Below, piece by piece: positions 1-44,794 of a DNA stretch of 64,000 nt. The notes below the pieces were generated by a model, which was given only the letters and a program-made list of their open reading frames with translations, was not told where the DNA came from and did not search any database. Origin of the DNA: Chloroflexota bacterium (lineage in GTDB: Bacteria > Chloroflexota > UBA11872 > VXOZ01); assembly GCA_965219505.1 (NCBI GenBank), contig OZ244775.1:1101929-1165928 (forward strand), in the 5' to 3' direction. The position numbers and the translations under genes were made by a program. How positions within the stretch are numbered: position 1 is the stretch's first letter; each line of letters begins with the position of its first letter.

Positions 1-182
1 TCTGCGGCAACCTCGTCAAGGTGTGCAGAACTCTCGAGCATTCCGACAACTGCTTCCACAGTACTTTGCTGTTTTCGTTTTGCCTTCTTCGTATTCCCCT
101 TTTGGTTCCGGCGCCGTTCTGCCCGGTTCATTCGTTCTCCTTTTCTCTGTGATCGTCTAGTCTCCTCGATGATAGGCGATGG

Positions 183-1490
183 CTAGGTAGGTGAAGCCAT
201 GAGCGCTGTTGGTTCCAGATCCCCCACCCGTATCTCACCTGTCATCAGCTTGTGCAAAAGCGCCTTGAATAGCTCCTCCAGCACGGCGCGCTTGCGGCGG
301 TGCAGGTCTATCTTGCGGTCGATGGTGTTGAGGATGGTGACGATTTCATCCTGTTGGTCATCGCCAGGAAACCAGACGGGAATTGTTGCTGAGAGGCTTG
401 CGTTATAGACAGAGTTAACCGACGATACATTTCTCTGTGAAGTGAAGAAACCACTTAGTCGCAAATGCGTTAACCACCGAAACAGATATCGATTGGAGAC
501 TAATCGATGGGTCCTGAACCTCAGGATAAAGGATGAGTACGTGCATTCATCATCCAACTCGAAAATGACTGTTTTCCCAACATGGCCAGAGCTTCCACTT
601 CTCCAATTGAAGAGCACATCCCCCCTAGAAAGGATCAACCTTTCGCGCTGTTCTTCTGGAACCTTGTAGTACCTACGCTTTTCTAGATTGATGCGGCCTT
701 CAAGGTCCAAGTTGATGTTGGTAAGTATTAGAGTGCCAATTGTGGGGTCTGTGGCATTGGCAACCGCAGCTTGCGCTCCATAGGTAATTTCAGCTAAATC
801 GCCAAGTTGTCTGACATCCCAACTCTCCGGCACTGGCCCAATCTCCGTCTCCTTCTGCGCCTCGCCTCCCAGCCCGCGAGTGAACAGCGTCTGCATCGCG
901 GCGCGTTTGAGAGTTTGCGTTGTCTCAATCGATTGTGTCTCAACAGCCATTAACTGTTGAATCATCTCTAGGGTGTCTGAGACTGTCGTTTGTTCTTCGG
1001 GATCAAACTTTGGGAACGGCAGATCAAGGAGTACAGCGGCGGGTATGCGCTGTCGCCCGGTCGCGCCTTCCATGCGCTCGGCGACATGATGGCGGACATC
1101 GGGATGCAGCAAGTAGAAGAACAACAACCGCCTGTCTTGCCCTTCCTTGCACGGTCGAAGCGGGATAACCTCGGTAGTGGCAATGCCGAAGGGTGTCGGT
1201 AGCCCGGTCGCGAGAGCTTGCTTGCCGTTTTCAAACGACGGCGTAATCTTGGCAATCAGAGCGTCGCCGCGCTCAAAGTAGGTTCCACTCCTGATTTCAC
1301 CCGGGGGCCTCATCATGTAGTCGGGTGTATATGCACCGCCTTGAGGGATGGCGTCCATAGGCACGAACGGGACCGCAGGCAACGAAGCCATATCAAGTCC
1401 ACGAGGCTTCTTCGTGACTTCGTAAGCGTCACCCAACCGCAGCCACCGGCGACCTTCGGCAAGTTCAGTATCAAGCAGAGTCATCAGCAA
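183..1490 (-). CDS. hsdS: Type I restriction-modification specificity subunit HsdS
   Basis: 435-aa ORF with two target-recognition halves separated by conserved helical spacer repeats typical of HsdS; start overlaps the hsdM stop by 20 nt (translational coupling). Confidence 0.8.
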
Positions 1491-3345
1491 CTCCAGCCAG
1501 GAGTTTATGCAGCGACGCCGAAAGCTGGTGGGCTTCCTCGTCGAGCGTGATAAGCTCCGCTAGCAGTTCACGAACGGAACCAACCTCTAATGAGCTTGCC
1601 TGCCCCACCCACCGGCTTGGGCTGAGGTTGTAGTCGGCCTCAGCCGCCTGATCGCGTGTAATGACGGCGACCTCGCCTTCTACCGGCTCACCTTTCACGA
1701 ACATCGCCGCCACCGGCTGGATGTCGTCCTGGGGAATAAAATTCTTGGGGCGTCCCTTACCAACGCGACGGCTTGCGTTGACCAGGACAATCTTGTCCTT
1801 GCGGGCCTCCGGCTTGCGCTTGGACAGCACGACGATGATGCCGGCGGCGCTGGTGTTGTAGAAGAGGTTGTCCGGCAGCAGGATCACGCCGTCGATCAGG
1901 TCCCGCTCCACGAACCACTTGCGGATGTTGCGCTCCCGGTCCTCGTGCCTGGCGCCGGAGCCGCGGGTCACCGCGCCGGTGTCCAGCACCACCGCAGCCC
2001 GCCCGCGCTCGTTCAGGCAGGCCAGGGTGTGCTGGAGCCAGGCCCAGTCGCCCTTGCCGGTGGTGACGCCGCCGGCGGTGCGGAAGCGGTCGAAGAGGTC
2101 GTTCTCAAAGATGTCCTGGCTTAAGCCCTGATTCCACATAGGATTGGCGACCACGATGTCGTGGCCCGTAATACGGCCCACGGTGTCCTTAAACTTGGGG
2201 TTGATCATGGTGTCGCCGCGCTCTATCTGGACCTCCATGTCGTGGATGATCGCGTTCATGCGAGCGACGGCGTAACTGTCGGCTTGCAGTTCCTGACCAA
2301 AGAGTTTGAGGGGAACGCGGCTGATGGGATCGGTCTCGCGGGCGACGAGCTGAAGCTTGATAAGTAGGCCCGCCGATCCGCAGGCGTAGTCGTGACACGT
2401 CTGCCCGGGCCGGGGACGCAGGATGTGGGCCATGAGGAAGCCGACCTCGGTGGGGGTGAAGAACTCGCCCGCGCTCTGACCGGAACCTTCGGCGAACTTG
2501 CGGAGCAGGTACTCATAGGCGCGGCCCAGGAAATCGGGCTGCACGTCGGCGAGGCCGAGCCGGTAGCGGGGGTCGGAAAAGGTCTCGACGACGGCGGCGA
2601 GCCGGGCCGGGTTGATGTCCCGCTCTCCGTTGCGCTCCGACGCAAAGTCCACGAGGTCTATGACGCCGGACAGAGTGGGGTTGTAGCGCACGACGGCGCG
2701 CACGGCACTAGTCAGGTGCTCACCAATGTCGCCGGGGCGGGTGCTACGGCCCTGGGCATCGAGCGGCCAGTCGTGTGCCTCGCGACCGCTGACCACGCTC
2801 CAGCGGGCCTCCGGCGGCAGGTAGAATCGGAGCAAGCCGTGGTCACTCTCCGCGATCTCCTGCGCGATTGTCCGGTCCCCAAATTCTTCGGCCAACCGGT
2901 CGATCTCGTCGTCGAACACGTCGGAGAGGCGTTTGAGGAAGAGGAGTGGCAGGAGGTAATCCTTGAACTTGGCCGCGTCCTTCTCACCGCGAATCGAGCA
3001 GGCGGCGTCCCAAAGCATCTGCTCCATTGGCTTGGTGGTGGGAACATTTGCTTTGCGCCGCTGGGATCTCCGCCGAGTCACCCTGGCGGCGGACTCCGCC
3101 CTATCCACGACTGTTTCAGTAGAATCGATGCCCGCCTCGACCGCAAGCGCGGCAATCGCCGTCCGAGCCGCCTTCTGGGGCATAGTCACGCCGCCCTCCC
3201 ACCGGTTCACCGTCGCGAACGACACGCCAAGCCGGTCGGCAAGTTGCTCCTGCGTCAGATCCAACCTGGCGCGAATGGCTTGCAAAGTTGGACTAACCGA
3301 TTGCCTATCTGTTATATTTGCCATGTTTGCATTATAATTGCTCAC
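1471..3345 (-). CDS. hsdM: Type I R-M N6-adenine DNA methyltransferase HsdM with N-terminal XRE-type HTH domain
   Basis: HsdM N-terminal domain ([38 protein letters not shown]); AdoMet motif [11 protein letters not shown]; motif IV variant VVANPMWNQ; preceded by a classic HTH ([23 protein letters not shown]). Confidence 0.85.
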
Positions 3346-3403
3346 CCATTTGGGGTCAAAACTACCCGATCAATCCTTATCGGGACGTTGCTAGAGAAGA
3401 AAC

Positions 3404-4238
3404 ATGGCGATTCCTGAATCCCAACTTAGTACGTGGTCCCACCACGGTGCCCAGGACTCGTCTAAACGCACCCATGAGGCTATCCGGCGGGCATTGGATG
3501 CATACCGGTGGCCTTCTGGAATGACCCGCGACTTCTACTTACAGGGGTCATACCGGAACGATACGAACATCCGGGGAGACAGCGACGTCGATGTCGTGCT
3601 AGAAATGACCTCGACGTTCAAATACGACACGAGCTCACTCTCCCAATACGAACAGGGGTTGGTTTCCGCATCTTTCCAGGCGGCCAGATACGATTGGAAC
3701 GACTTCCGACGCGAGGCGCTCAAGGCCCTAGAGGGCGAGTTCGGCAGTTGGATGGTGGGGCAGGGCAACAAGTCGATCAAACTGAAGTCGGACCCACCGA
3801 GACTGGCGGCCGATGTTGTTGTCTGCATGCAGCATCGGCAGTACATCAGCTATTCCTCATACATGGAAGGCATTACTTTCTGGGCTCTAGGTGACAGACG
3901 CTGGATAGTCAATTATCCGAAAGAGCACTACAAGAACGGTGAGGAGGTTCAAGAATGCCCGGAATCACTTGGAGTCCGCTGGCAGCATCAGCGCTGACCT
4001 TGCTCCGTCCTACTTCGTCGAGTGCCTTATCTACAATGCGCCAGACTCGGCTTTTCAGCCCGGCTTTCAGGAGACCTACTGCTCCATCGTCAACTGGGTG
4101 GTCGAATCTGCTCTCGACAGGCTCGTCTGCCAGAATGGCCAGCAGTGGCTTTTTGGTTCGTCTCCCGAGCAATGGTCGGTAGAGGATGCAAAGACCTTCG
4201 CGAATCAGCTGGTCTCTCTGTGGAACGACTGGAGGTGA
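3404..4238 (+). pseudogene. SMODS / cGAS-DncV-like nucleotidyltransferase (CD-NTase), split by a frameshift near 3935-3960
   Basis: ORF 3404-3997 has the NTase core QGSYRNDTNIRGDSDVDVV (GS...[DE]h[DE]h) and a downstream acidic residue (RLAADVVV) plus WIVNYPKEH. ORF 3939-4238 in another frame continues with SMODS C-terminal-like sequence (RNHLESAGSISADLAPSYFVECLIYNAPDS). The two halves together give ~280 aa. Confidence 0.6.
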
Positions 4239-4247
4239 CCAACTCGG

Positions 4248-4826
4248 ATGCACTCCTACGAAGTAAAAGGACAAGGAAGAGTTGCGGTAGCACTCGCTGT
4301 CGCCAGCATCTTGATGATCTGGCTCCTCCATGTCGGACTGGACTCTGTTGACTTCGAGCCTCAGTGGTGGTTGAGCGTACCTTCGTTCGCGGGCTGCTAT
4401 TCAGTACTCCATTGGTTGTTCGACCGCTATGTGTGGAAACTTGGGTGGCTGCGGAATCTCAAGCTAATCCAGCTACCCGATCTCAATGGAAAGTGGGTTG
4501 GTGAGGTCGGGTCTTCCTATAGCCGTGACTGTCGCGCCCACTCAGTGTCCGTAGTTATCTTGCAGAGATGGTCGAAAATACTGGTGAGGCTGGAGACTGA
4601 ACATTCTCGCTCCCGGAGCATTACGGCCAGTCTGAGAACCATTGATCTACTCAATCCTGAATTGTCCTACCAGTATGTAAACGAGCCCAAGTCCAATGCT
4701 CCAGGCACCATGGCCATGCACAGAGGAACAGCAGTTCTTGAATTCATTGGCTCTAACCTTGAAGGCGACTACTTTACTGGGCGAGGAAGGGGAGAGGTGG
4801 GGACAATCAAGCTCAGTAAGTCTTGA
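4248..4826 (+). CDS. 2-TM CBASS-type effector (Cap15/SLATT-like): two N-terminal TM helices plus ~120-aa C-terminal beta-rich domain
   Basis: 192 aa. TM1 RVAVALAVASILMIWLLHVGL, TM2 WWLSVPSFAGCYSVLHWLF. Starts 10 nt after the NTase fragment. The architecture matches known SMODS + 2TM effector pairs. Confidence 0.5.
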   Translation: MHSYEVKGQGRVAVALAVASILMIWLLHVGLDSVDFEPQWWLSVPSFAGCYSVLHWLFDRYVWKLGWLRNLKLIQLPDLNGKWVGEVGSSYSRDCRAHSVSVVILQRWSKILVRLETEHSRSRSITASLRTIDLLNPELSYQYVNEPKSNAPGTMAMHRGTAVLEFIGSNLEGDYFTGRGRGEVGTIKLSKS

Positions 4827-5367
4827 CACCACCGTTATGTGGTCGACGGTGGAAGGGACCCGCAGCCTGATGTGTCAGTGGCAGCCCCACTCTACACCCC
4901 TAGCTTGAACCTGAGCGCGATAGTTCTCGATTCTTTCAATGCTGGTGGGCAGTGTAAGACTGTATTGCGAACTTTTCGGTGGAAGATCCTCATATAAAGT
5001 AAGGGGGTCAACTCCCAAAGGCCTCCGTCTCTGATGAGCGGGGGTCTCGTTCAACGCCGTTGCAGGTGCCCCAGCCACTCCGCACCACTAGACTTGGGGC
5101 GCCTACAAGCCCCATTATCGGGGCTCCGCCTCGGCAATCGAACTGGGAATCCTGCCGAAGCCGAGGATGGAACCGGAACCGCGCATGGTCGATGAGAACG
5201 GCAAGGTGGTCCAGGAAGCGCTGGAACTAGCCTTTCAAACAGCTTCCTCGATTGTGCCGATTACCACTGGTTCCTCAAGTGTGCCGTCGTGGTCCTCGGT
5301 GACGGTAAAGTCGCCGTTGAGAAAGACAACGCCAACGACGCGGGCACCATCCACCACCACGTTGCCT

Positions 5368-5720
5368 CTATAAGGTACAGTTCGGACCCACCAAGGTCTT
5401 GCCGAAAAGACGAGCGTTGTCGTCTATAACGGTACTGCCAGCGAGAATGATGTCGCCGCCCACTACGGCATTACCGCAAACGCCTGCCACATCTCGCAGA
5501 AACGCATTGTCGGTCACGCGGCTGTTGTGCAGGGCATAAGCGCGCTCAGATATCCAGCAGTCGCCTTCCTGGTCGAGGTTGGCCTGTCTCTCAATGAGGC
5601 CAGCCTTGTTGCCCGCCGGCCTCCCCATGAGCCTTCCCGTAAGGCGACGATGCGGTACATGCGTTTGCCTTCAGAGTACAACCCGTCTTTGTCATAGACC
5701 ATGCGGTATATTTTCTTCAC
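5368..5720 (-). pseudogene. Degenerate, frameshifted paralog of the beta-helix repeat gene at 8243-8686
   Basis: ORFs 5514-5861 and 5368-5628 together recapitulate the 8243-8686 protein. KKIYRMVYDKDGLYSEGKRMYRIVALREGSWG matches KKYRMVYEKGAWHPEGKLLYRIYALREGDWG. ...ANLDQEGDCWISERAYALHNSRVTDNAFLRDVAGV... matches ...ANLDQEGECWLTDDAFAIQNSRVTGNAHLRDVAGA.... The copy is split by a frameshift. Confidence 0.7.
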
Positions 5721-6253
5721 GATTTGACACTCTCTTATAAAAGTCTTGCCTGCATGAAAGGTACCACCTTGCGAGACGCTGAAAGGTTTCACTTGTGAAA
5801 ATGCAATCTCCCTACGGTGAGCCGCAAGGAGCCACGCGAGGAAAACCACGGCGTGTCTCAATCAGAGACTCACGGATAGGATTTGGTTTAAACTGTCGGA
5901 GGAAACATGCTATCAATACGTTAACTGGAATTCCAGCAAAACCACGCTAAACCCGCACAAAACCAGCAAAGCATAGTGCACTATGCCCCAAAATGCACCC
6001 AAAACCACCACGCTTGCAATTCTAATCATTGGCAATAGACTGCATTAAAGTGTGGTATGCTATAGGTGCAATAGGTAAAAGAGATGTGAAGGAGAACTAC
6101 GAGTTCTCCTTCACGATAGCCACAGCCATATTGGCTGGCGTCGGTCTGCTTAGGAGGTTCGAGACCCGTATCTTTGCTCTTTCAGATCGGGTGTCGCGCA
6201 TAGAAGTCTTACTTGAAGGCTACTTCATGCATGATAGCAAGCAGGAGGATTAG

Positions 6254-7300
6254 CGATGAGCAAGAGTGCCCTATCGTTTGGGGAGATGGTCAAGGCATTT
6301 CTCGCTATCCGGCCAAAAGAGGTCGAGGATTCACCAGATCCCGATACGTCAGACGACTCCCTACCATCCGAGGCACAGCCTCAGCCAGACACTCCAGAGT
6401 GCTCAGACTGATAGTGTTAATGCGCTCGGCGAATTCGTTGACGTAGCGGTGCAGATGCTTGGCGCTCATGCTATGGTAGATGCCTTTATGCCCGCGTTTG
6501 AGCAGCGCCCAGAAGCTCTCGATACCGTTCGTGTGCGTATCGCCCTGCACGTACTCTTTCCGGCTATGCCGTACCCAGGCATGCCAATAGTCCTCCAGGC
6601 CCCGGTAAGCTTTCCAGTCATCGGAGTAAATCGTGGATTCTTTGGCGACGTTCGCATAGATGGCACCATGCAGCGTTTCCCGGCTGGCATCGGGAATTGG
6701 GAACGCTATTACTTTGCCAGTTCGCTCGCGCATGCCGAACACTGTCGTCTTGCCAGACCCGGGGCCTTGCCGGTACTTCTTGTTGGCATGCCGAATGCGG
6801 TCGGAACCACCAACGTAAGTTTCGTCAACTTCCACAACGCCAGCGAGGGGGTCGCCGCCAACGCCCATGAACTCTCTCAGACGATGCATCAAGAACCAGG
6901 CCGTCTTTTGGGTAGTACCAAGCATTTTGGCGAGCTGGATGCTGGAAACGCCCTTGCGGGCGGTGTAGAGGAAGTAGAGAGCGAACAGCCACTTGCGGAG
7001 AGGAAGCTTGCTGCTTTCCATGACGGTGCCGGTACGAACCGAAAAGTGCCTTCGACAGTCCCGGCAACGATAGGGCATAGGTTTGGTGCAATAGGAGATC
7101 GAGGCAGAACCACAATGCGGGCAGATCGGAGTATTGTCCCAGCGATATCGCTCAAAGTAGGCAATAGCAGCTTGCTCGTCGGGGATCATTTCCGTGAATT
7201 CGTAAAGGCTTAAGGATTTCATGGCAAACCTTCAATACTGACTTACCTTACATATAAAGTATTGCCGATCATATACGTTCGTGATTAGAGCCCCGTGGCG
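6254..7300. mobile_element. IS1595-family insertion sequence (ends approximate)
   Basis: Carries an intact IS1595/ISXO2-like transposase gene. AT-richer flanks. Precise terminal inverted repeats not resolved by eye. Confidence 0.6.
6305..7222 (-). CDS. IS1595-family transposase (N-terminal zinc ribbon + DDE domain)
   Basis: 305 aa. Zn-ribbon CPHCGS...CRDCRRHF, then a conserved ISXO2-like DDE core (VVEVDETYVGG ... YSDDWKAY ... NGIESFWALLKR). Confidence 0.85.
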   Translation of the reverse strand: MKSLSLYEFTEMIPDEQAAIAYFERYRWDNTPICPHCGSASISYCTKPMPYRCRDCRRHFSVRTGTVMESSKLPLRKWLFALYFLYTARKGVSSIQLAKMLGTTQKTAWFLMHRLREFMGVGGDPLAGVVEVDETYVGGSDRIRHANKKYRQGPGSGKTTVFGMRERTGKVIAFPIPDASRETLHGAIYANVAKESTIYSDDWKAYRGLEDYWHAWVRHSRKEYVQGDTHTNGIESFWALLKRGHKGIYHSMSAKHLHRYVNEFAERINTISLSTLECLAEAVPRMVGSRLTYRDLVNPRPLLAG

Positions 7301-7359
7301 CGCGGTTACGATTGTTCTATAATTAGAGTATAGGTTGGCCGCAACGAAAAAGCAAGGGA

Positions 7360-7821
7360 ATGGCAAAGAAAGCTCCGAGCAAGCACTTCCGCAAGGGCAT
7401 GACCCTCATAGAATTACTGGACATGTTCCCCGACGACCCGACCGCCGAGCAATGGTTCGTGAGCGTACGCTGGTCCGATGGCATCCAGTGCGCCTATTGC
7501 AACAGCAAGAACATCACCGTACGTGGCAGTCACCCGAATCAGCCCTACCGCTGCCGCGACTGCCGCAAATTCTTCTCGGTCAAGACCAATTCCATGATGC
7601 ATGCCAGCAACATTGGATACCGCAAGTGGGCACTGGCAATTTACCTAATGACCACAGGTCTCAAAGGCACATCAAGTATGAAACTGCACCGAGACATCGG
7701 CGTGACCCAAAAGACAGCTTGGCACATGGCTCACCGAATCCGAGAAACCTGGGCCCATTCGTATACTGGCGTGTCAGGAGCCAAGAGTGCTAAGGGTCAA
7801 TTCGTGTCCGGAACAGTTTGA
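7360..7821 (+). pseudogene. Truncated second IS1595-family transposase (N-terminal zinc-ribbon/HTH half only, no DDE domain)
   Basis: 153 aa homologous to the N-terminal half of the 6305-7222 protein (CAYCNSK...YRCRDCRKFFSVKTNSMMHASNIGYRKWALAIYLMTTGLKGTSSMKLHRDIGVTQKTAWHMAHRIRE). Ends before the catalytic domain. Divergent from the first copy. Confidence 0.7.
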
Positions 7822-8242
7822 TGTTTAGTCTGTGGAGACATCACACACTTCTGTGAGTATTGAGAGCTATCGTATCTGCTTTGGAGTAAAATGTGTCTGA
7901 CAAGCCCAAGCACAATCCCGACAAGAATCGGAAGCGAGGCCGGCCTGTCATCAAGACCATGCCGCCGAAGATTCCCGATACCCCTGAGAACGTCGCTCGG
8001 GCACTCCTCACTACTCCCCCTAAACCCCGCAAGGCGTCTTAGCCTCTTCGAAAGCCCCTCTGGTTACGATTGTACATAATCCATCTGTATTACAATCTCC
8101 GAACGGAGAAGGGTTGATACGGAGCGCCATGAAAGGCACTACCATGAGAATGTATGATAAAACCTGCTTGGATGTCGGGGACAAGATGAGCCAAAACATG
8201 AACTAGCTTCCTGAGCCCGACCCCAAGAAGGACGTTAAATTC

Positions 8243-8686
8243 GTGGCGAAGAAATACCGCATGGTTTACGAGAAGGGTGCCTGGCACCCCGAAGGCAAAC
8301 TATTGTACCGGATTTACGCTTTGCGTGAAGGCGACTGGGGGCCGGCAGGCACCAAGGGTGGTCTCGTAGAGAAAGCCGCCAACCTGGACCAGGAAGGCGA
8401 GTGCTGGTTGACCGATGATGCCTTCGCCATACAGAACAGCCGCGTAACCGGCAATGCGCATCTGCGTGATGTGGCCGGTGCGTACGATAATGCCAAAGTG
8501 GGCGGCAACTCCGCTTGCGCCGGCACTGCACGGATCATGGGTAACGCCAGTCTCCTGGGCTATACCATCGTGGGGCCGAACTGCACCATCAAAGGCGACG
8601 CGGTCGTAGAGAGTGCCATCATATTCGGGTTCGTTTACATCAACGGCCCATTCACGATCACCGAGGATATCCGTGGAACAATCTAA
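8243..8686 (+). CDS. Hypothetical beta-helix (hexapeptide-like repeat) protein
   Basis: 147 aa with repeated x-N-A-x-[LV] turns (GNAHLRD / DNAKVGG / GNASLLG / PNCTIKG). Intact copy of the gene degenerated at 5368-5720. Confidence 0.5.
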   Translation: MAKKYRMVYEKGAWHPEGKLLYRIYALREGDWGPAGTKGGLVEKAANLDQEGECWLTDDAFAIQNSRVTGNAHLRDVAGAYDNAKVGGNSACAGTARIMGNASLLGYTIVGPNCTIKGDAVVESAIIFGFVYINGPFTITEDIRGTI

Positions 8687-8724
8687 GACGGCCCCGTGCT
8701 ATTGGGTGAAGTCGACGAACCCAG

Positions 8725-9150
8725 CTAAAAGGCGAGTTCCGCCGCTTCCTGTATCAGCTTGCCGCTTTCGTCAACCATACGCGGTTCCGCTTCCACCCTG
8801 GGCAGCGGTAACACCCCAAGTTCGATTGCCACATCGTAGAACCCCCTGTCAGCCAGTCGCATGGCAAGTCGGCGTGTCTGCATGATGCGCTCTGTGCGAG
8901 CGGTTTGGCTTTCATCCTCGGGTTCAGGATAGAGACCCACCGCGATGGCGAGGATATCGTTGTTATTCTCCGTGACATGAAACAACGCCATGCCACGCGC
9001 ATTCAGCCTACGCCGATGTGCAGGTGTGTGCTTCGGGAAGATTTCGCCCACAATGAGGCTGCCGCTCTCATCGTAAATCTCACCCACCGGGGGCGCGCCG
9101 AAACGGCTGCCTCGCTCCAAGCCTTCTCTATTGGGTGTCCTGCTCGCCAT
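8725..9150 (-). CDS. Hypothetical protein (convergent with the 8243 gene)
   Basis: 141-aa ORF. Its C-terminal ~40 aa (AIELGVLPLPRVEAEPRMVDESGKLIQEAAELAF) has a degenerate paralog on the + strand at ~5100-5232 that is interrupted by a stop. Confidence 0.4.
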   Translation of the reverse strand: MASRTPNREGLERGSRFGAPPVGEIYDESGSLIVGEIFPKHTPAHRRRLNARGMALFHVTENNNDILAIAVGLYPEPEDESQTARTERIMQTRRLAMRLADRGFYDVAIELGVLPLPRVEAEPRMVDESGKLIQEAAELAF

Positions 9151-9658
9151 GGCTACTCCTATTCTGACCAGTGCTCAAAGAACGGGTACTCCCTCAGCAG
9201 GCTAACGCGTTGCCGGCGTGCCAGTTCACGTACCAGTTCGATTATTCTTCAACGAAACGATGCCTGCGAACCCATTAATACCGCCAATAATGCATTTTCT
9301 CCTCACAATGTCTTTGAGGTTTCCAACAACGCCTTGTTGGTGCGAATGCATTCATCTGATCCCGCTACCATAGCTCTCGCACTTGGAACTTCCGCCAGCT
9401 CAGCAAGACCCATTTTAGGCATCGTGCTCAAATTGAATGGCACCAGTCAAGAATATAACAGTCAGGAATTTGGTCTCGGTTCTCGGGGCCGGAGGTGCGC
9501 TAGTGAGCGACGCCAATGGCCGGTTTTCAGACCATCGCAACACTGCAGCAGAAGTGTCAGACTTTATGCAAAGAGACATCGCTCCAGAAACGCAAATTGA
9601 GTATCAAGCTACCAAAGCAGACCTCGGAATACCAAGACTTGGGTGGGCATAACCATAG

Positions 9659-10369
9659 TTAGCGCAATAGCATCGGTTCTATTTTCCGGTCAAAATGCAG
9701 AAGACTCGATTGTTCATGCCTTCGCGGGCACTCATTCGCCCCGGCTAGGATTGTATATAGTTCCCTGCGCTTAGTATCGCCGCGCAGGAAGTTCTGCTGC
9801 AGCTCCACGTACACCGCGTAAGGGCTGTCTTCGACAAGGTCGCCGTACCACGCCACGTACTCTTTCAGCAGCGTCATCGCCGCTTGGTGGCGGTCTGCCT
9901 CTATCAGTCTCGCAAGAGGCCCGTCACGGCCGCCGGTGAGCAGAATCAGACCTGCAGCATGCTTCGGCAGATGTGCCGGGTCCAGCCGCGGCTCCCTGCG
10001 GTCGACGGCGTTCGCCAGCGTGAACAGCCGCGAAAGGTTGGCATAGCCCTCCCGCGTCCTGGCCAGCAGAACAAGGCGCGAACCATCCAGCAGGGTGAGC
10101 TCGCCGCCGGTGATGGGCCGGACCTCCAGGCTGTTGGCGAGGCGTGCGAAGTCCAGCGCCCCGCAGAGGTTGGTGTCGGTCAGGGCAAGGGCAGGGTAAC
10201 CGAATGCCTTGGCCTGGGCGAGCAACTCGTGCGTGTGGGAGGCTCCCGTCCCGAAGGAGTAGAAGCTCTTAGCGTGCAGCTCAACGTATCCGGCGGACGG
10301 CGACTGCGTCGAAGACATGGGGCTGTCCCTATGCGGCCTGCTGGTACCAGCGTCCGCCTCTCCGGTCAT
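9659..10369 (-). pseudogene. dnaE2: Error-prone DNA polymerase DnaE2 (ImuC), N-terminal PHP-domain fragment only (236 of ~1000+ aa)
   Basis: YVELHAKSFYSFGTGASHTHELLAQAKAFGYPALALTDTNLCGALDF... is the canonical PHP N-terminus of DnaE2/PolIIIalpha. The ORF stops after 236 aa and no continuation exists in any frame. It lies immediately downstream of imuB. Confidence 0.75.
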
Positions 10370-11804
10370 GGAACAGGGTGAGCGGAATCCCGTCTGCCCG
10401 CCGTACCCGGTAGTAGGTACGCGTAAGCGGCGCAGCCAGCCACCAGAGATCGAAGCACCATTGGTCGTCGATGCAGGCTACCTGATGCCACCGGTTCTTC
10501 AAGCGTACGGCTACGGGCTGGTTATCCTCGCCTGCCCGCACTTCCGTTGCCGTGGGCGTCGCCAGGGGTCTCATGCTGTCCTTCACCGCCGGATCGATGG
10601 GTACCTGCAGCGCGCGCAACTCCGGCGCGGGATGCCAGGGCGCAATATCCACCACCCGGAACAGCGCGCGCTTGCCCTGCATACGGGCTTGGAGCTGTCT
10701 GTCCGCCTCTACTAAACGGTCGGTCCTATCCTTGCGGACGTCGCGGAGCAGCCCCATCTGCATAGCGGACTCGCCCGTCAGATTCGCCAGGGTGAGCGTC
10801 ACCTCCTCGACAGGCGCGGGAGGATAGTCGGATTCCAGACGGCTTCTGATGATGCGCGCGGCCCGCTCGCAACCAACGCCGTGCTTGAAGTGGACGATTC
10901 TTTCCCACGGCGACGAGCGGAAAAGGCTGCACTGTATGGTGGCCTGCTCGGCATACCGCCCCCGCATCTGCGGCCGCGCGTACGCGCTCTTCAGCAGACC
11001 GTCCAGTGTCACCAGGAAGAGTTCCAGGGAGGTAGAGACAAACGGCAGCGTGACGTGTGCGGCAACGGACTCCTCGTGTTTTAGCGGGACAAAGGCCTCG
11101 TCGTCTATACCGTGGCAGAGCTGCCAGGCCCGGGTGCCGTCAGCGCCGAACTGGTCGCTGAGTTGGTCTACGCGCATGGCCGCCACGTCGCCCAAGGTGC
11201 GCAAGCCGAAGCGTTGCAGGCGCGCCAGCACTGCGGGAGCGAGCGGCAGCAGCGTAACGGGATGCGGCGCTAAGAACGCAGCCGCATACTCAGGCACTCG
11301 CGTTACCTCACCTGCCCGGCTGGCTTGGGCTGCGACCAGAGCAGGAAACTTGGCGTCCGCTACGCCTACGCGCGGCGCGAGGTCTTGGGGCACGGCGTTC
11401 AGCAAGGCGGCGGCAAGCCGCTCTTCACCTCCGTAGAGGGCCTCCAGTCCGTCGAGGCGCACGTACGCGACACCCAGCGCCGCATGCTCCACCCGATCGC
11501 TGACCTCCTGGAGAGAAGTAAGCACCTGCCGGAATACCTGCCGGTACGCCGGTTCGTTGGCTTCGATGACGACGGTGTTGGCATTATGGGAGAGCGCCTC
11601 CTCCAGCGACATGCCCACCGCTACCCCGGTGGTGGCCGGAAAGACGTCAATGACCTGAGGGCTGCTCGCCGAGCGGTCGACTATCACGGCTGGCGCTTGC
11701 GCCAGCTTGGGCTGCCGCCGCAACTCGCACTTGGCCCGCAAGTGGGTAATGAGCACACAGGCAACTTTCATGATGCCGCACCTCTTGTCTCCATTCCTTG
11801 CCAT
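10329..11804 (-). CDS. imuB: ImuB (catalytically inactive Y-family polymerase-like mutasome subunit)
   Basis: Y-family/ImuB-like N-terminus (MKVACVLITHLRAK; likely true start near 11771). It lacks the DMDxFF catalytic acidic motif of DinB. It overlaps and precedes dnaE2. Confidence 0.7.
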   Translation of the reverse strand: MARNGDKRCGIMKVACVLITHLRAKCELRRQPKLAQAPAVIVDRSASSPQVIDVFPATTGVAVGMSLEEALSHNANTVVIEANEPAYRQVFRQVLTSLQEVSDRVEHAALGVAYVRLDGLEALYGGEERLAAALLNAVPQDLAPRVGVADAKFPALVAAQASRAGEVTRVPEYAAAFLAPHPVTLLPLAPAVLARLQRFGLRTLGDVAAMRVDQLSDQFGADGTRAWQLCHGIDDEAFVPLKHEESVAAHVTLPFVSTSLELFLVTLDGLLKSAYARPQMRGRYAEQATIQCSLFRSSPWERIVHFKHGVGCERAARIIRSRLESDYPPAPVEEVTLTLANLTGESAMQMGLLRDVRKDRTDRLVEADRQLQARMQGKRALFRVVDIAPWHPAPELRALQVPIDPAVKDSMRPLATPTATEVRAGEDNQPVAVRLKNRWHQVACIDDQWCFDLWWLAAPLTRTYYRVRRADGIPLTLFHDRRGGRWYQQAA

Positions 11805-11989
11805 TATAGAACTTCCTTTTTACGCAGAAACCGCAATGGAGGGATATAATGATTCACGATGGTATGTCGAAAGGGAGCCAGCACTGTGTGCCACAGCTAA
11901 AACGGTTAAATGCCTAGCTAAGAGGGCCGGCAAACCACCCGCAACCTACAATGGTTCAAGCTACGTCTACCAATTTCAACCCCGCTTCC

Positions 11990-12019
11990 TTGACACCGTG
12001 GCGCGTTGTTTGGTACATT
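11990..12019 (+). promoter_or_regulatory. Candidate sigma70-type promoter for the 23S-5S rRNA transcript
   Basis: TTGACA (11990-11995), 18-nt spacer, TACATT (12014-12019), ~80 nt upstream of the 23S 5' end. A GCCCTAgaaaTAGGGC hairpin follows at 12028-12043. Confidence 0.4.
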
Positions 12020-12100
12020 AGTGGATGCGCCCTAGAAATAGGGCGGTACATTAACAAGTGAATATGCGCAAGCAGAACTTCAATTTTGCCGATTAAAAGC

Positions 12101-15192
<3,092 letters not shown>

Positions 15193-15431
15193 GCTTCTAA
15201 TCGGCAAATTTGGAGTTCTGCAATCTGTGAATTATTCTCCAAGCGCGAGAATTCTATCACCTAGGTCGGGAAAGTCATGGCGGGTTTGTACGCCAGGCGT
15301 TCCCAATAAAGAACTGCGCATCGTTCACTATTGCACTTTGACATAACGCGTCGTCTCTTGATGTGCGCCTGCTACCCGTCGTTGGGCGGCCTCGCACGTA
15401 CGGCACGTTTCTAATATCCCAGTCAAGAATT

Positions 15432-15550
15432 CCTTGGGTGACAAGGCGAGGGGGGTACACCCGTTCCCATCCCGAACACGGTAGTTAAGCCCCTTAGCAC
15501 TGACGATACTGCACGGGCGACTGTGTGGGAAAATAGGCCGTTGCCCAAGG
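15432..15550 (+). rRNA. rrf: 5S ribosomal RNA
   Basis: CCTTGGGTGACAAGGCGAGGGGGGTACACCCGTTCCCATCCCGAACACGGTAGTTAAGCCCC...GGCCGTTGCCCAAGG with complementary ends; ~240-nt spacer after the 23S. Confidence 0.9.
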
Positions 15551-33199: not shown

Positions 33200-34300
33200 A
33201 CCACTACCTAAGAACTCTCTGAACAAGTCCCTGGCATAGTATCATAGCAAGAAAGCAGCCTATGGTGAGGAGCTGGGTAATGGAGCAGCCGACGTTTGCC
33301 GACCTGGAGTACGCGCAGAAGAAGCGCAAGACGCGGCGGGAGAAGTTCTTGGAGCGGATGGACGCGCTGCTCCCGTGGGCGGAGTTGGAGGCGCGCATTG
33401 CGCCGTACTATCCCAAGGCGGGACGCGGACGGCGGCCGTATCCTTTGTCGGTAATGCTGCGGATCCACTGTGTGCAGGCTTTCTACAATCTGAGTGATCC
33501 TGGGATGGAGGACATGCTGTACGAGGTGGAACCGGTGCGGCGGTTCGTGGGGCTGCGGCTGTCAGAGGCGCTGCCGGACGAGACGACGATCCTGCACTTT
33601 CGGCATTTGCTGGAGAAGCATCGGTTGGGAGAGGGGTTGTTGGCGGAGATCAACGCGCATCTGGCGAGGCGGGGCTTGCGGCTGCGAGCGGGGACGGTAG
33701 TGGACGCGACCATCATCGCGGCGCCGACATCGACGAAGAACCGATCAGGATAGCGAGACCCGGAGATGCGGCAGGTGAAGAAGGGGAACCAGTATTACTT
33801 TGGGATGAAGCTGCACATCGGCGTCGACGCGCAGACGGGGCTCGTGCACAGCTTCACCACCACATCGGCCAACGTGCACGACGTAACGCAAGCGGCGGCG
33901 TTGCTGCACGGCGCAGAGCAGCAGGTGTGGGGAGACGCCGGGTACGTGGGGGTGCAGAAGCGGCCGGAGCATCAGGGACGCGCCGTGACCTGGAAGGTGG
34001 CGCTGAAGCCGGGGCAGCGACGGCAGTTGGCGTCAGAGAGCGCGGCGGCGCTGGCCGAGCAGCGCAAAGCGTCGGTCAGGGCCAAGGTAGAGCATCCGTT
34101 CCTGTGGGTGAAGCGGCGCTTTGGCTACGCCACGGTGCGCTATCGGGGCTTGCACAAGAACACGCAACGGCTGGCGTTGCTGCTGGGACTGACCAACCTG
34201 GTGACGGCCGCACGCCAGTTGGCAACATGACACGGGAGCAGTGCGCCCAAAACACGGCTGGGAGCGGAAACACTCCCCACAGCGCCAAAACATGGGCAAA
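33200..34300. mobile_element. IS5-family element (ends approximate)
   Basis: Encodes an IS5-type transposase; a low-complexity CA-rich tail follows at 34300-34380. Confidence 0.6.
33262..34230 (+). pseudogene. IS5-family DDE transposase interrupted by one in-frame TAG (33751-33753)
   Basis: ORFs 33262-33753 and 33766-34230 are in the same frame. ...[42 protein letters not shown]... follows the E. coli IS5 pattern ...[40 protein letters not shown]... The TAG occupies a codon position, apparently a Q (CAG) equivalent. Confidence 0.8.
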
Positions 34301-35201: not shown

Positions 35202-35252
35202 TGTTTCAGTGAAGTTCGTACTACAAGCCTCCGGGTCTGAGGTGCGAGTGGG

Positions 35253-35325
35253 TGGAGATGAGGAGACTCGAACTCCTGCCCCCCTCCTTGCAAAGGAGGT
35301 GCTCTCCCAACTGAGCTATGTCCCC
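35253..35325 (-). tRNA. tRNA-Ala(TGC)-like second copy, probably a pseudo-tRNA
   Basis: 73 nt identical to the 44795-44870 tRNA-Ala over the D-arm, anticodon arm and T-arm. The 5' acceptor strand is GGGGACA against 3' CATCTCC, so the two basal pairs are mismatched (C6-A67, A7-C66). The genomic 3' end is CCC rather than CCA. Confidence 0.5.
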
Positions 35326-35603
35326 GTGCGGCGGCTAGAATAACAGGGCAATGGTTACTGAATGCCGGCGCTGCTTTTGGTGGTGGGCCACTGGGAAATT
35401 GGGTCGGCGATGCATGAAACAATGCAATACCAGAAAGGGAAGAATAGAAGGCGGGGTATACCGAACGAGTATATGTCATTGCTCCGCTCCGATAGGTAGT
35501 TCAAGGAACTATGGGTCACGGTGTGGGTGGTCGTTACCAAGGCCGCTATAGGGCACCGAGGAAGGGACCCTCTGTGAGTCGATGGCAAACATGACGGGAA
35601 AGT

Positions 35604-36715
35604 TTACGCCCAAACGTTGCGGGCGGTCTCGGCGACGATGCGGAGTTTTGCGTATTGCTGCTCGACCGAGAGAGGATTGCCGACGATGGATGAGCCGAAC
35701 CCGCACTGAGGACTGATGGCGAGTTGCTCGAGAGGGAAGTGGCGGGCAGCCTCGGCGATCCTAGACTCAAGCTCGGATGGGGTCTCCGCGCGAGGTGACT
35801 TGGTCGTGACCAGCCCAAGCGCCACTTGCTTGTCGTCCGGCACGCCGCGCAGAGGCTCGAACGAGCCTGAGCGTGGGTCGTCGTACTCCAGCATCAACCG
35901 CTGCGCGTTCACGCGCTCGAGAACCGGCCCAACAATCCGGTCGTAACTGCCTTCGACCAGCCAACGGCCGCCTTGGTTCCCACGTCAGAGGTGGAATGCG
36001 AACACTACTTCCGAGAAACCGTCCATCACGGCGTTATCCAGCTCGACGCCCTGGGCGATCCAGTCCTCCGCAGACCAACCCTGGGCCTCGTAGAAGGCCG
36101 CCCACACCGGATCCAGCACGAGTGGGTAGTGCGGAGCGTCGAGTTGGATGTAGGTCGCCCCAAGCCTTATCAGCTCTTCGATCTCCCCACGGACTATCCG
36201 CGCGACATCGGCCAAGAACGCATCCAGCGTGGGGTAGGCTGCGGCGGACTTCACCGGTGACCAGAAGTTGGCGAACAGGCTGGGGCTCGGCAGTGTCACC
36301 TTTGCTATGCGGGTGGTGCGGCCGCGCAGGTAGGTGAACTCCTCCGCCGACAGGTGGCGCTTCCGCTGGAGGGGACCGACGACACCCAGAGTCGCAGGAC
36401 GTTCCTTGCGCAAGTCTCCTACCCGTTCGCCGCCCTGCCAATCGCCCCAGAGGAACGCGTCGATATCGAACTCGCCAAAGCCTGCGACTGCCTCGGGCAT
36501 CTGACTCTGGAACGAGAGCCTGCGCATTTCGCCATCGGTGAGGATTTCAAGTCCGGCCTCCTCCTGGGCAGCTACGGCACTATCGACAGCGGCGTCCTCG
36601 GCGCGCTTGAATTCCGAGGGCAAGATTCGCCCGGCCGCAAATTGCTCGCGCGCGGCGAGTAGCTCCGGTGGTCTAATTAGGCTCCCAACGACATCGGCAT
36701 GAGGTAGATTCAGCA
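35604..36715 (-). pseudogene. Cobalamin-independent methionine synthase (MetE) C-terminal-domain-like protein with an in-frame TGA (35985-35987) at the conserved H-x-C zinc-ligand position
   Basis: ORFs 35985-36869 and 35604-35912 are in the same frame. Read-through gives ...VVFAFHL[TGA]RGNQGGRWLVEGSYDRIVGPVLERVNAQRLMLEYDDPRSGSFEP...SPQCGFGS. MetE-family proteins have H-x-C-x-G-N here. Likely true start is MLNLPHADVVGSLIRP (~36715). Confidence 0.55.
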
Positions 36716-37015
36716 TGGCGAATAGCCCCGCATATCTTGGCGGTTTGGGACAGACAAGCCGGGCCTGCCGAGTCGGTGGATTTCCAAGACGATCTGGGCA
36801 GCGACAACGCGGCGCTCCATCCAACTCTGGGGCTCGCCTGCGGCAAGACCAACAGCAGCAACCGGGCAAGCGCTGCCACGCGAGCGTGCAATGACTGACT
36901 CCATGCGGCTCATAGCAGCCAAGGGCTTGACTTCAAGGGTGTGACGGCAACTCCGGATGCAGAATCCTGCGTCTGCCGACATGTATGAACCCCGCCGAAC
37001 CATTATTGTATCAGG

Positions 37016-37453
37016 ATGGTGGACCAGAGGAAGGCCGATAGCAGGCAGGCATCCACCCGGCCACACACAGGCGCAGACGGCAAGGTGATCGCAAGTACCG
37101 TGTTCACGTATGAGGCAAAGAGGAGTGCATTCCATGCTCTGGACGCCTCCACCGGGGATGAGCTGTGGAGCCTCGGATCTGACTGGGGCCTGTCGTCGAT
37201 CATGGTGGTTGACGGAGTGGTGTACGCCCATTCCCTGTCTGGCTATCTCCACACGCTGGAGGCCCGAACCGGGGAGCCGATCTGGAGCCTCGACATCGGC
37301 TATCAGTGGCGGCGACGACCCTTCGCCGTTTCTGAGGGTGTGGTCTACGTGGGTTTACCGGCCAGCAACCTGGACCGAGGGCCAGGGCAGGCCATCCAGC
37401 GGCGTTTACGCCTTTGCCGCCCCTGGCCGCAAGTAATTGATGTCAGGGAATAG
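37016..37453 (+). CDS. PQQ-repeat beta-propeller fragment (~3 blades), probable gene remnant
   Basis: Repeats AFHALDASTGDELWS and YLHTLEARTGEPIWS plus VVYAHS / VVYVGL strands. Too short for a full propeller. Confidence 0.35.
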   Translation: MVDQRKADSRQASTRPHTGADGKVIASTVFTYEAKRSAFHALDASTGDELWSLGSDWGLSSIMVVDGVVYAHSLSGYLHTLEARTGEPIWSLDIGYQWRRRPFAVSEGVVYVGLPASNLDRGPGQAIQRRLRLCRPWPQVIDVRE

Positions 37454-37683
37454 GAAATGAAGACCGCAATGTGTAGATAGGGCCTTGAGTTCTTCGTCTT
37501 CCAATCAACACAAAGAGTACGGTTCTCAAGGGCAATAGATTTGGATGCAACTAGGGTCCAAGCTACTTGGAAGAGTTGTCCCCCAGGATATAGTCCGCTT
37601 AACGGTTGGCAGTGGCCGGCAGGAGTGTCAATTGCAAGGATAATCCGGCAGTGTTAGAATCGATGCTCGGAAGGTAGAGCCTT

Positions 37684-38130
37684 ATGAACGCGTCTCTCAA
37701 TGGGTTCCGCATCATGGTCGTGGTCGGCGTTCTCGTGAACGCCGCATTCTGGGGGCCTGCATTGATTGCGCCTCAGATGATCAATGATACTCTCGGATTC
37801 GACCCCGGTTACCACACCGTTTGGCTGCGGAACGTTGGGATGCTACTGCTGATTGTGTCCATCACCAATGTCGCCGCCGCGCTTGACCCATATCGCTACC
37901 GATTGTTCGCGTGGCTTGTGGTCGTAGGGCGACTCATCGCGGCGTCGTTCTTCCTGGAGATTTGGCTGTTCGATGCTCTCGAATCGTCCGATAGGCCCAA
38001 TGCGTTCAAGTGGTTCTTCCTAACCGACGTTTCGCTTGGCGCCATCAAGGGGATCTTGCTCTATGCTGGACTGAAGCTGCGCGATGCCGAGAGTAGCCCT
38101 GATATCTCACAGAAGAACCGGATGGTGTAG
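37684..38130 (+). CDS. Small polytopic membrane protein (4 predicted TM)
   Basis: 148 aa with four hydrophobic stretches; the stop abuts the start of the OYE gene. Confidence 0.45.
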   Translation: MNASLNGFRIMVVVGVLVNAAFWGPALIAPQMINDTLGFDPGYHTVWLRNVGMLLLIVSITNVAAALDPYRYRLFAWLVVVGRLIAASFFLEIWLFDALESSDRPNAFKWFFLTDVSLGAIKGILLYAGLKLRDAESSPDISQKNRMV

Positions 38131-38134
38131 CGAA

Positions 38135-39442: not shown

Positions 39443-39498
39443 CCGCTGGCAGGTGCGGTGCGAGTGCAGCCTGAGATCGACATCTTGAGGGGGCAGCT

Positions 39499-40941: not shown

Positions 40942-40995
40942 AGTAACGGCAGCGCGTGGGATTTCGATAACAGGACAGAAGCCGGAGGCGCACAT

Positions 40996-42312: not shown

Positions 42313-42365
42313 GCCTCCGAATCTGTGCCCACGGGCGCATTGGTTCACCACATAGGAGGAGGACA

Positions 42366-44726: not shown

Positions 44727-44794
44727 ATAGAGGCGACTGACACTCACAGCACCAACTGGAACCTCAACTCGAAGGTTCTTGATTTCGTCAAGTC

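Follow-up and report, generated by a model that had tools for sequence, protein, structure and literature searches.

The locus analysed here lies in a 64-kb stretch of Chloroflexota DNA (the window) and carries a two-gene cassette whose first gene, imuB, is intact and whose second, dnaE2, is disrupted. The longest open reading frame (ORF) of imuB, 10329..11804(-), starts at 11804 and encodes 491 aa, and alignment with relatives places the likely start at ATG 11771, giving a 480-aa product (10329..11771 on the minus strand). By the same alignment the truncated dnaE2 ORF (9659..10369(-), 236 aa at its longest) probably starts at ATG 10318 and encodes 219 aa. An earlier note on this DNA had located both ORFs correctly, but the 41-nt overlap that it saw between imuB and the dnaE2 start gives way, once the starts are refined, to a 10-nt spacer. 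The order imuB then dnaE2 is the same in 12 relatives and in five metagenome contigs. ImuB belongs to the Y-family fold by its IMS domain (PF00817, 2.9e-14; PF21999, 7e-4), its best relatives of solved structure are DinB, Dpo4 and Dbh, and against all DinB/UmuC NCBIfam models it scores far under the cut-off. In the HMMER alignment, the catalytic residues D103 and E104 of E. coli DinB (4irc) stand opposite G and V (SLDE versus ALGV). Since the catalytic carboxylates are absent, the protein is catalytically dead, as had been proposed. The N-terminal DMD of DinB probably corresponds to VLI in the MKVACVLITH of ImuB, a match obtained by extending the alignment manually to a motif just before the aligned stretch. 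ImuB is 92% identical to the ImuB proteins of the relatives L002, L003 and L007, and its gene has a dN/dS of 0.12-0.16. Mutasome ImuB proteins end in an extension with a RecA-NT-like motif and an ImuB-C domain, which binds DnaE2/ImuA; the present protein has about 130 additional residues at its C terminus, which are conserved among relatives and match no Pfam family, even at E=10.

The native part of dnaE2 spans 9766..10318 on the minus strand and encodes most of a PHP domain (PF02811, 2.8e-25), corresponding to positions 4-189 of the error-prone polymerase model and, more broadly, to positions 4-190 of DnaE-type models of about 1050-1150 positions. It aligns to residues 8-196 of P0123, a full-length relative of 1084 aa, with 96% identity, and is 96.6% identical to the L002 and L019 proteins. 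Nucleotide homology to nine relatives halts at 9766 each time, which places the breakpoint between 9765 and 9766: after the shared AAGCGCA the window continues with GGGAACTATATAC, whereas eight relatives continue with ATAGCGAACTGG. The cut falls inside the PHP domain, ahead of the conserved ATNDVH segment. Beyond it the ORF reads on through 32 codons to a TAA stop (9659..9765, minus strand), and this tail, with a GC content of about 50%, bears no similarity to any DnaE2. The note rightly described dnaE2 as truncated to its PHP domain, most of which remains, but the native sequence stops at 9766 and the last 32 codons of the truncated gene are foreign. Past 9766 the GC content is about 50%, down from 65%, a step that arises because the cassette is GC-rich relative to its flanks (63-65% versus 55-58% in all relatives). 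This agrees with the lower GC described for 9150-9659; the same interval, said to be non-coding, holds two adjoining plus-strand reading frames that may be the remnant of a frameshifted gene. As predicted, dnaE2 does not continue in another frame: tblastn with three full-length or C-terminal queries found no continuation in any frame of the whole 64 kb, and a single DnaE2 polypeptide with PHP, palm/thumb/fingers, HhH and OB domains is not encoded in the window, where only model positions 4-189 are represented. Compared with relatives, the 5' piece has a dN/dS (0.06-0.14) matching that found among the intact genes (0.03-0.13), so that the break looks recent.

Scored alone, the fragment does not discriminate between polymerase families: the DnaE1 model gives it 93.2 bits and the error-prone model 84.8. 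For L007 and P0123, which are full-length orthologues, the scores are 765 and 764 bits on the error-prone model versus 579 and 575 on DnaE1, and although these two and P0124 (see below; 642 versus 462 bits) all favour the error-prone model, they stay under its curated cut-off of 939. The assignment of the fragment to DnaE2 is therefore argued from orthology and linkage and not from its own scores. ImuB is followed by an intact dnaE2 ORF of 1050-1200 aa in all 12 related Chloroflexota genomes (GTDB representatives), with the full set of PHP, pol3_alpha, finger, HHH_6 and OB domains, and SRAP and GNAT genes lie downstream of it; neither of the latter is present in the window. No imuA or imuA' (RecA-like) gene occurs in the window, but the note's view of this as damage does not hold, since none of the 12 relatives has imuA within 10 kb of its intact cassette and the absence is typical of the lineage. 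Normally, then, the cassette of this lineage consists of imuB and dnaE2, without imuA, followed by SRAP and GNAT genes.

The remainder of dnaE2 has not disappeared. A protein-database search returned P0124, encoded by an uninterrupted 894-aa ORF on a contig of 3,520,232 bp, which aligns to residues 209-1084 of P0123, covers positions 194-1047 of the error-prone model and is 92% identical to the L007 DnaE2, the alignment spanning 100% of the C-terminal query. P0124, the only member of its cluster, has no PHP domain; it comprises the last PHP motif followed by palm, thumb, fingers, HhH and OB domains. Its start lies at most 12 residues from the break: the initial MPVIATNDVHY matches the native GTG codon of VPVVATNDVH, the native dnaE2 codons for the 36 nt ahead of this GTG being NSELARLAQDAG. 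A 3,520,232-bp contig is also the source of the window's exact 480-aa ImuB product, its 141-aa and 147-aa ORFs, an IS1595 transposase and the PHP fragment. The two halves of dnaE2 thus appear to reside on the same 3.52-Mb chromosome, as judged from identical size and source rather than from coordinates, with P0124 outside the 64-kb window. Because the halves are complementary and both kept, dnaE2 was bisected rather than lost, and because neither has decayed, the event was recent.

These data bear on the explanation given in the earlier note, that an IS-associated deletion probably destroyed the system; such a deletion would have taken away the 3' 80% of dnaE2 together with the downstream genes. 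The DNA joined to the break (1..9658) does resemble a defence or mobile island by its PADLOC, Pfam and PHROG matches and its repeats: it contains type I restriction-modification genes (hsdS/hsdM), a frameshifted CBASS cyclase with a 2TM effector, ORFs of unknown function, two IS1595-type transposase genes (6305-7222 and 7360-7821) and an inverted, diverged duplication (5133-5725 versus 8238-8830), so that both transposase genes and the duplication are found 0.9-3.5 kb downstream of the break, and the missing SRAP and GNAT genes would likewise fit a deletion. No gene of 1..9658 has a counterpart in the relatives' 21-kb cassette loci, the 141-aa ORF adjacent to the junction had no relatives in JGI metagenomes, and neither ORF of the duplicated module had a match in viral contigs. 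However, the truncation does not abut these features as had been stated, the duplication being 0.9 kb and the nearest IS1595 gene 1.9 kb away. Neither an IS end nor a repeat or inverted repeat of the junction flank occurs in the window, and a search of the flank for IS-like terminal repeats found none with 6 or fewer mismatches in 25 nt. An IS-mediated adjacent deletion is thus at odds with a nearest transposase 1.9 kb off, with a junction free of terminal repeats and with the retention of the distal sequence as P0124, an 894-aa 3' piece on an equal-sized contig that begins no more than 12 residues from the break. We regard such a deletion as highly improbable; the disruption is an ordinary and recent one and not an IS-driven deletion.

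It is conceivable that the interruption is reversible, the DNA between the halves being a discrete element or invertible segment whose excision or flipping, for instance in response to DNA damage, would restore dnaE2. Integrated elements interrupt mutL, comK and sigK in other bacteria, and inversions split genes in IS-rich symbiont genomes. The present case resembles these in the clean bisection of a coding sequence, in the apparent retention of both halves on the chromosome and in the defence- and IS-rich foreign DNA at the junction, and a reversible switch would fit two intact halves under unrelaxed selection next to DNA of mobile character. Unlike the mutL, comK and sigK elements, however, the window shows no attachment repeats or signs of excision, and the 9.7 kb on the island side of the break contain no recombinase gene. 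Moreover, none of the 12 relatives has an interrupted gene, the decayed island genes (the frameshifted cyclase and a truncated transposase) fit passive debris, and a recent event accounts for the intact halves equally well and more simply. We therefore see only a slim chance of reversibility, which matters nonetheless, since only then would the locus gain greater importance: error-prone synthesis would be switched on by DNA rearrangement and not solely by transcription.

A different concern is a mis-join at 9766 in this metagenome-assembled chromosome, which would display a normal dnaE2 as two halves at two places. An error of this kind would produce just such exactly complementary, undecayed halves. 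The 2.1-kb imuB-dnaE2 block lacks synteny with relatives on either side, and related long-read assemblies in the database contain many artefacts in dnaE2, frameshifts and a tandem duplication among them. In addition, the exact junction had no match in JGI metagenomes. However, such assembly errors normally occur in repeats, none of which lies at or near 9766 in the window, and the contig is chromosome-sized, as are the complete chromosomes of relatives. The lack of synteny is not unusual either, as the neighbourhood upstream of imuB differs among relatives anyway. An artefact is therefore unlikely, though to be taken seriously. The same non-syntenic DNA on both sides might suggest that the genome has an intact imuB-dnaE2 pair elsewhere and that the block studied here is an additional, partial copy. 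This is scarcely credible, because the 3,520,232-bp contig yields one PHP fragment and one ImuB (in 40 of the 89 members of the ImuB cluster), and the sole other dnaE2 product seen from it has no PHP part and starts at the break.

Could the two pieces nevertheless function, the PHP fragment and the 894-aa core both being made and reassembling with ImuB? Both ORFs are intact and the low dN/dS is kept, but the cut lies within the PHP domain before ATNDVH, the fragment bears an unrelated tail of 32 residues, none of the 12 relatives has this architecture, and where the database has split ORFs, they stem from frameshifts in genes that are contiguous. We accordingly attach very little credence to a two-piece enzyme. 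The database matches had themselves raised the possibility of a family of recurrently truncated or split genes, since the 120 best relatives found for the PHP fragment are short without exception (160-413 aa). This was ruled out: in five contexts the short ORFs reflect frameshifts or a tandem duplication, with the rest of dnaE2 following directly, most of these contexts are low-coverage (4x-14x) long-read metagenome contigs, and dnaE2 is uninterrupted in 12 of 12 GTDB-representative relatives.

The scenario that we consider probable is that a recent rearrangement bisected dnaE2 between 9766 and 9765, that its 3' part survives elsewhere and that the function of ImuB-DnaE2 has most likely been lost. 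The gene would have been cut after about 190 native codons, inside the PHP domain, either because defence-island DNA, at least 9.7 kb long, was inserted or through an inversion or translocation. The 5' piece would have stayed behind imuB, reading through 32 foreign codons to a stop, while the 3' piece of about 890 codons would persist uninterrupted elsewhere on the 3.52-Mb chromosome. Since the PHP fold would be severed and the catalytic core parted from imuB and the cassette promoter, damage-induced mutagenesis by ImuB-DnaE2 is most likely abolished, leaving an orphan ImuB and no translesion synthesis by the pair. For the split of the rRNA genes, an inversion at about 12.0-35.25 kb has been proposed, which would separate 23S-5S from 16S-tRNAIle-tRNAAla. 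A single inversion underlying both this split and the dnaE2 break was considered and rejected, because it is the region upstream of imuB, rather than the break in dnaE2, that is joined to the 23S rRNA gene. The bisection and the scattered rRNA operon of the window together suggest a structurally fluid chromosome. In annotation, the fragment is best described as half of a bisected dnaE2 rather than a deletion remnant, and the missing imuA as normal for the lineage. The genome would be one more symbiont-type Chloroflexota genome rich in IS and defence islands, in this case with an ImuB-DnaE2 pathway just lost by rearrangement.

The cassette resembles the ImuA-ImuB-DnaE2 (ImuC) mutasome, for example mycobacterial imuA'-imuB/dnaE2 (PMC10421592; PMC3919608), in that an inactive Y-family gene immediately precedes a second DnaE-type polymerase gene, the two-gene operon being complete in relatives. 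It differs in that neither the window nor any of the 12 relatives has imuA or imuA' within 10 kb and, in the window, in that the polymerase gene is cut in two and a canonical LexA-type box is absent. Operons of a Y-family gene and dnaE2 without ImuA have been described before (Timinskas and Venclovas, 2019; PMC6511836). The present cassettes share with these the coupling of an inactive Y-family homologue to dnaE2 and, in the relative L010, an immediately preceding gene that encodes a LexA DNA-binding domain. However, those variants often have a standalone ImuB-C gene, whereas here the Y-family protein carries its own C-terminal extension, and the relatives, unlike those variants, add SRAP and GNAT genes downstream.

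Upstream of imuB, a conserved block (11772..11891, minus strand) loses homology to relatives at 11870-11891, and the 23S rRNA gene lies beyond it (12102-15192(+)), where the note had placed it. In relatives, the ORFs upstream of imuB encode LRR/WD40, ABM, HEAT/PhyH, CN-hydrolase or LexA-DBD proteins. Some relatives have a Cheo-type GAAC-N4-GTTC site upstream of the cassette, which, by analogy with Dehalococcoides LexA, may be the LexA box of this lineage. The note had pointed to the region upstream of imuB for such a box, but no GAAC-N4-GTTC with up to one mismatch occurs in 11772-12101. What the window does have, by alignment with relatives, is a degenerate copy (11843-11855) of their GAAC-N4-GATC element, reading TGAATCATTATATC versus TGAACTTCTGATC in relatives. 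The site is conserved in close relatives as GAACTTCTGATC, the window version being GAATCATTATATC, and more distant relatives have a perfect GAACATATGTTC or GAACGTACGTTC.

The window cassette is most likely a recently bisected member of the known ImuA-less type of imuB-dnaE2 cassette. The earlier note's observation is borne out, and its interpretation holds in part: an imuB-dnaE2 cassette with a disrupted dnaE2 is present, but neither a deletion nor the missing imuA as a sign of damage stands up. The longest imuB reading frame (10329-11804, minus strand, 491 aa) carries a Y-family IMS domain (PF00817 at 2.9e-14) and scores 15-77 bits against DinB/UmuC models with cut-offs of 256-431 bits. Since the catalytic SLDE of E. 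coli DinB (4irc) aligns with ALGV in this protein, its product is an inactive ImuB-type Y-family homologue in the sense of earlier work (PMC6511836; PMC3919608). The 236-aa frame behind it (9659-10369, minus strand) is a PHP domain (PF02811 at 2.8e-25) covering positions 4-190 of DnaE-type models about 1050-1150 positions long. Comparison with relatives suggests that imuB begins at ATG 11771 (480 aa) and dnaE2 at ATG 10318, leaving a 10-nt spacer rather than the overlap that had been claimed.

Scanning representative genomes with ImuB yielded 12 loci from Chloroflexota, Dehalococcoidia and Anaerolineae (ImuB identity 48-92%), mostly on complete MAG chromosomes of 2.6-4.1 Mb, and an uninterrupted ORF of 1050-1200 codons follows imuB in all 12. 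In L007, a relative with an intact cassette, this ORF encodes PHP, pol3_alpha, finger, HHH_6 and OB domains and is followed by SRAP peptidase and GNAT genes. The best NCBIfam match of the full-length orthologues is the error-prone polymerase model, at 765 bits versus 579 for DnaE1, albeit under the curated cut-off. DnaE2 is known in Chloroflexi (PMC3919608). None of the relatives has an imuA-like gene upstream of the cassette, where the neighbours instead are LRR/WD40, ABM, HEAT/PhyH or CN-hydrolase genes or encode a LexA DNA-binding domain, and Y-family/DnaE2 operons without ImuA have been described (PMC6511836). Absence of imuA, which the note had listed for the cassette remnant, is the normal state of the lineage. 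An SRAP gene (PF02586, SOS-response-associated peptidase) lies beside the cassette in all annotated related loci, directly 3' of dnaE2 in L007 and the metagenome contigs L017-L020 and upstream of imuB in the metagenome contig L001; a GNAT acetyltransferase gene lies behind SRAP in L007, L019 and L020, and in the other close relatives the sizes of the ORFs at these positions downstream of dnaE2 agree with those of the two genes. Both genes are absent from the 64-kb window.

At the nucleotide level, the match of nine relatives to the window (79-90% identity) stops at base 9766 every time; its other edge falls at 11870-11891, 100-120 nt before imuB begins. The window has ...AAGCGCA|GGGAACTATATAC at the break in place of the relatives' ...AAGCGCA|ATAGCGAACTGG, and beyond it the ORF adds 32 unrelated codons before a TAA stop. 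No part of the remainder of dnaE2 occurs in any frame anywhere in the 64 kb, 8900-9659 included. The drop in GC content at the truncation is real, but it marks the edge of a GC-rich cassette (63-65%, flanks 55-58%) shared with all relatives. The segment 9150-9659, previously called non-coding, holds two adjoining plus-strand reading frames (9200-9652) that one frameshift would join and that end 110 nt before the break; no family match was found for them, and they may represent a decayed gene.

The rest of dnaE2 seems not to have been lost, contrary to what the deletion proposed earlier would require. The last 866 residues of L007 DnaE2, searched against a protein database, retrieved P0124, an 894-aa protein that is 92% identical to the query across 100% of its length and has pol3_alpha, finger, HHH_6 and OB domains without PHP. 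P0124 forms a cluster of its own, its NCBI and ENA source is a contig 3,520,232 bp long, and the window's PHP fragment (P0001), 480-aa ImuB, 141-aa and 147-aa ORFs and IS1595 transposase come from a contig of exactly this length and from the same sources; we infer that P0124 and the window fragment lie on one molecule. Against the 1084-aa full-length relative P0123, the window fragment corresponds to residues 8-196 and P0124 to residues 209-1084; on the error-prone polymerase model they occupy positions 4-189 and 194-1047. P0124 opens with MPVIATNDVHY, at what is the native GTG codon of VPVVATNDVH, and the 12 residues between the pieces fall upstream of this called start, where a protein database cannot show them. 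Thus dnaE2 appears to have been cut into complementary halves that are both kept on the chromosome, which contradicts an IS-associated deletion of its 3' part.

The note's statement that an IS cluster abuts the truncation is not borne out: 1.9 kb separate the junction from the closest transposase gene, nothing resembling an IS end was seen there, and the junction flank recurs in the window in neither direct nor inverted orientation. The DNA joined at the break (1-9765) has the look of a defence or mobile island. Among its genes are type I restriction-modification hsdS (183-1490) and hsdM with an N-terminal HTH-like extension (1471-3345), both on the minus strand, with no hsdR seen in the window. 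On the plus strand, a frameshift-split CBASS-like oligonucleotide cyclase (3404-3997, positions 1-188 of a 297-position model, continuing in another frame at 3939-4238) precedes an intact 2TM effector (4248-4826), forming a type I CBASS-like pair (3404-4826). An IS1595-type transposase gene, full-length at 6305-7222, and a truncated one, limited to the zinc-ribbon part, at 7360-7821 are bracketed by an inverted, diverged duplication (5133-5861 and 8238-9150, about 69-75% identity) of a small module comprising the 147-aa ORF (PHROG matches, weak hexapeptide-repeat similarity) and part of the 141-aa ORF. The island also carries ORFs with no assigned function, the one with PHROG matches among them. 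Insertion of at least 9.7 kb of island DNA could have cut dnaE2, and an inversion or translocation would be likewise compatible with the data. Less probably, the apparent break comes from an assembly mis-join.

The rRNA operon is scattered in the same window too, which suggests that this chromosome is often subject to large rearrangements. The 23S rRNA gene lies upstream of imuB, as noted earlier, on the opposite strand and together with 5S (12102-15549, plus), while 16S, tRNA-Ile and tRNA-Ala lie at 47207-44795 (minus) and a second, 96% identical tRNA-Ala at 35251-35325 (minus). An inversion of about 12.0-35.25 kb would restore 23S-5S to a place following this second tRNA-Ala. The two tRNA-Ala copies lie 9.5 kb apart, and the intervening DNA (35329-44794) resembles an insertion bounded by a tRNA duplication. 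Its genes are for an animal-type haem peroxidase with TPR repeats (42234-44726), a cytochrome P450, a RoxA-like dihaem cytochrome c and an old-yellow-enzyme-type flavin oxidoreductase. An IS5-family transposase (33262-34230, plus), divided between a DUF772 and a DDE_Tnp_1 ORF, shares 74-76% identity with an IS (1088-2032) located among the LRR genes that immediately precede imuB in L020.

Compared with relatives at dS 0.17-0.70, the window's 5' piece has a dN/dS of 0.06-0.14, indistinguishable from intact genes (0.03-0.13); imuB has 0.11-0.16, with 0.08-0.13 among intact relatives. The P0124 ORF has no interruption, and its similarity to relatives equals that of ImuB (about 92%). For these reasons the break is probably recent relative to species divergence. 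It falls inside the PHP domain, ahead of the conserved ATNDVH segment, and parts the catalytic portion from imuB and the cassette promoter; judged from the sequence, ImuB-DnaE2 function would be lost. The general interest of such a bisected cassette is low unless the interruption proves reversible, which we consider very improbable.

All of the top 120 database hits for the PHP fragment are short (160-413 aa), as if the split recurred. In five contexts, however, dnaE2 proved to be contiguous and disrupted by frameshifts or a tandem duplication, mostly on long-read contigs of low coverage (4x-14x), a situation unrelated to the window's break. In L001 (10001-13287), a tandemly repeated stretch of about 25 codons (LTGYLIGISHVDPLRWGLTLERFL twice) and a frameshift interrupt dnaE2, which may be an assembly error because coverage is 9x.

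The conserved block upstream of imuB contains GAACTTCTGATC in close relatives, and more distant ones have a perfect GAACATATGTTC or GAACGTACGTTC. The search for a LexA box upstream of imuB in the window yielded no Cheo-type site (GAAC-N4-GTTC) with at most one mismatch; the counterpart at 11843-11855 is a degenerate GAATCATTATATC, which may reflect regulatory decay. The 210 nt between the conserved block and 23S hold a promoter-like site (11990-12019, plus; TTGACA and TACATT 18 nt apart, with an extended TG), which precedes the 23S 5' end by about 80 nt.
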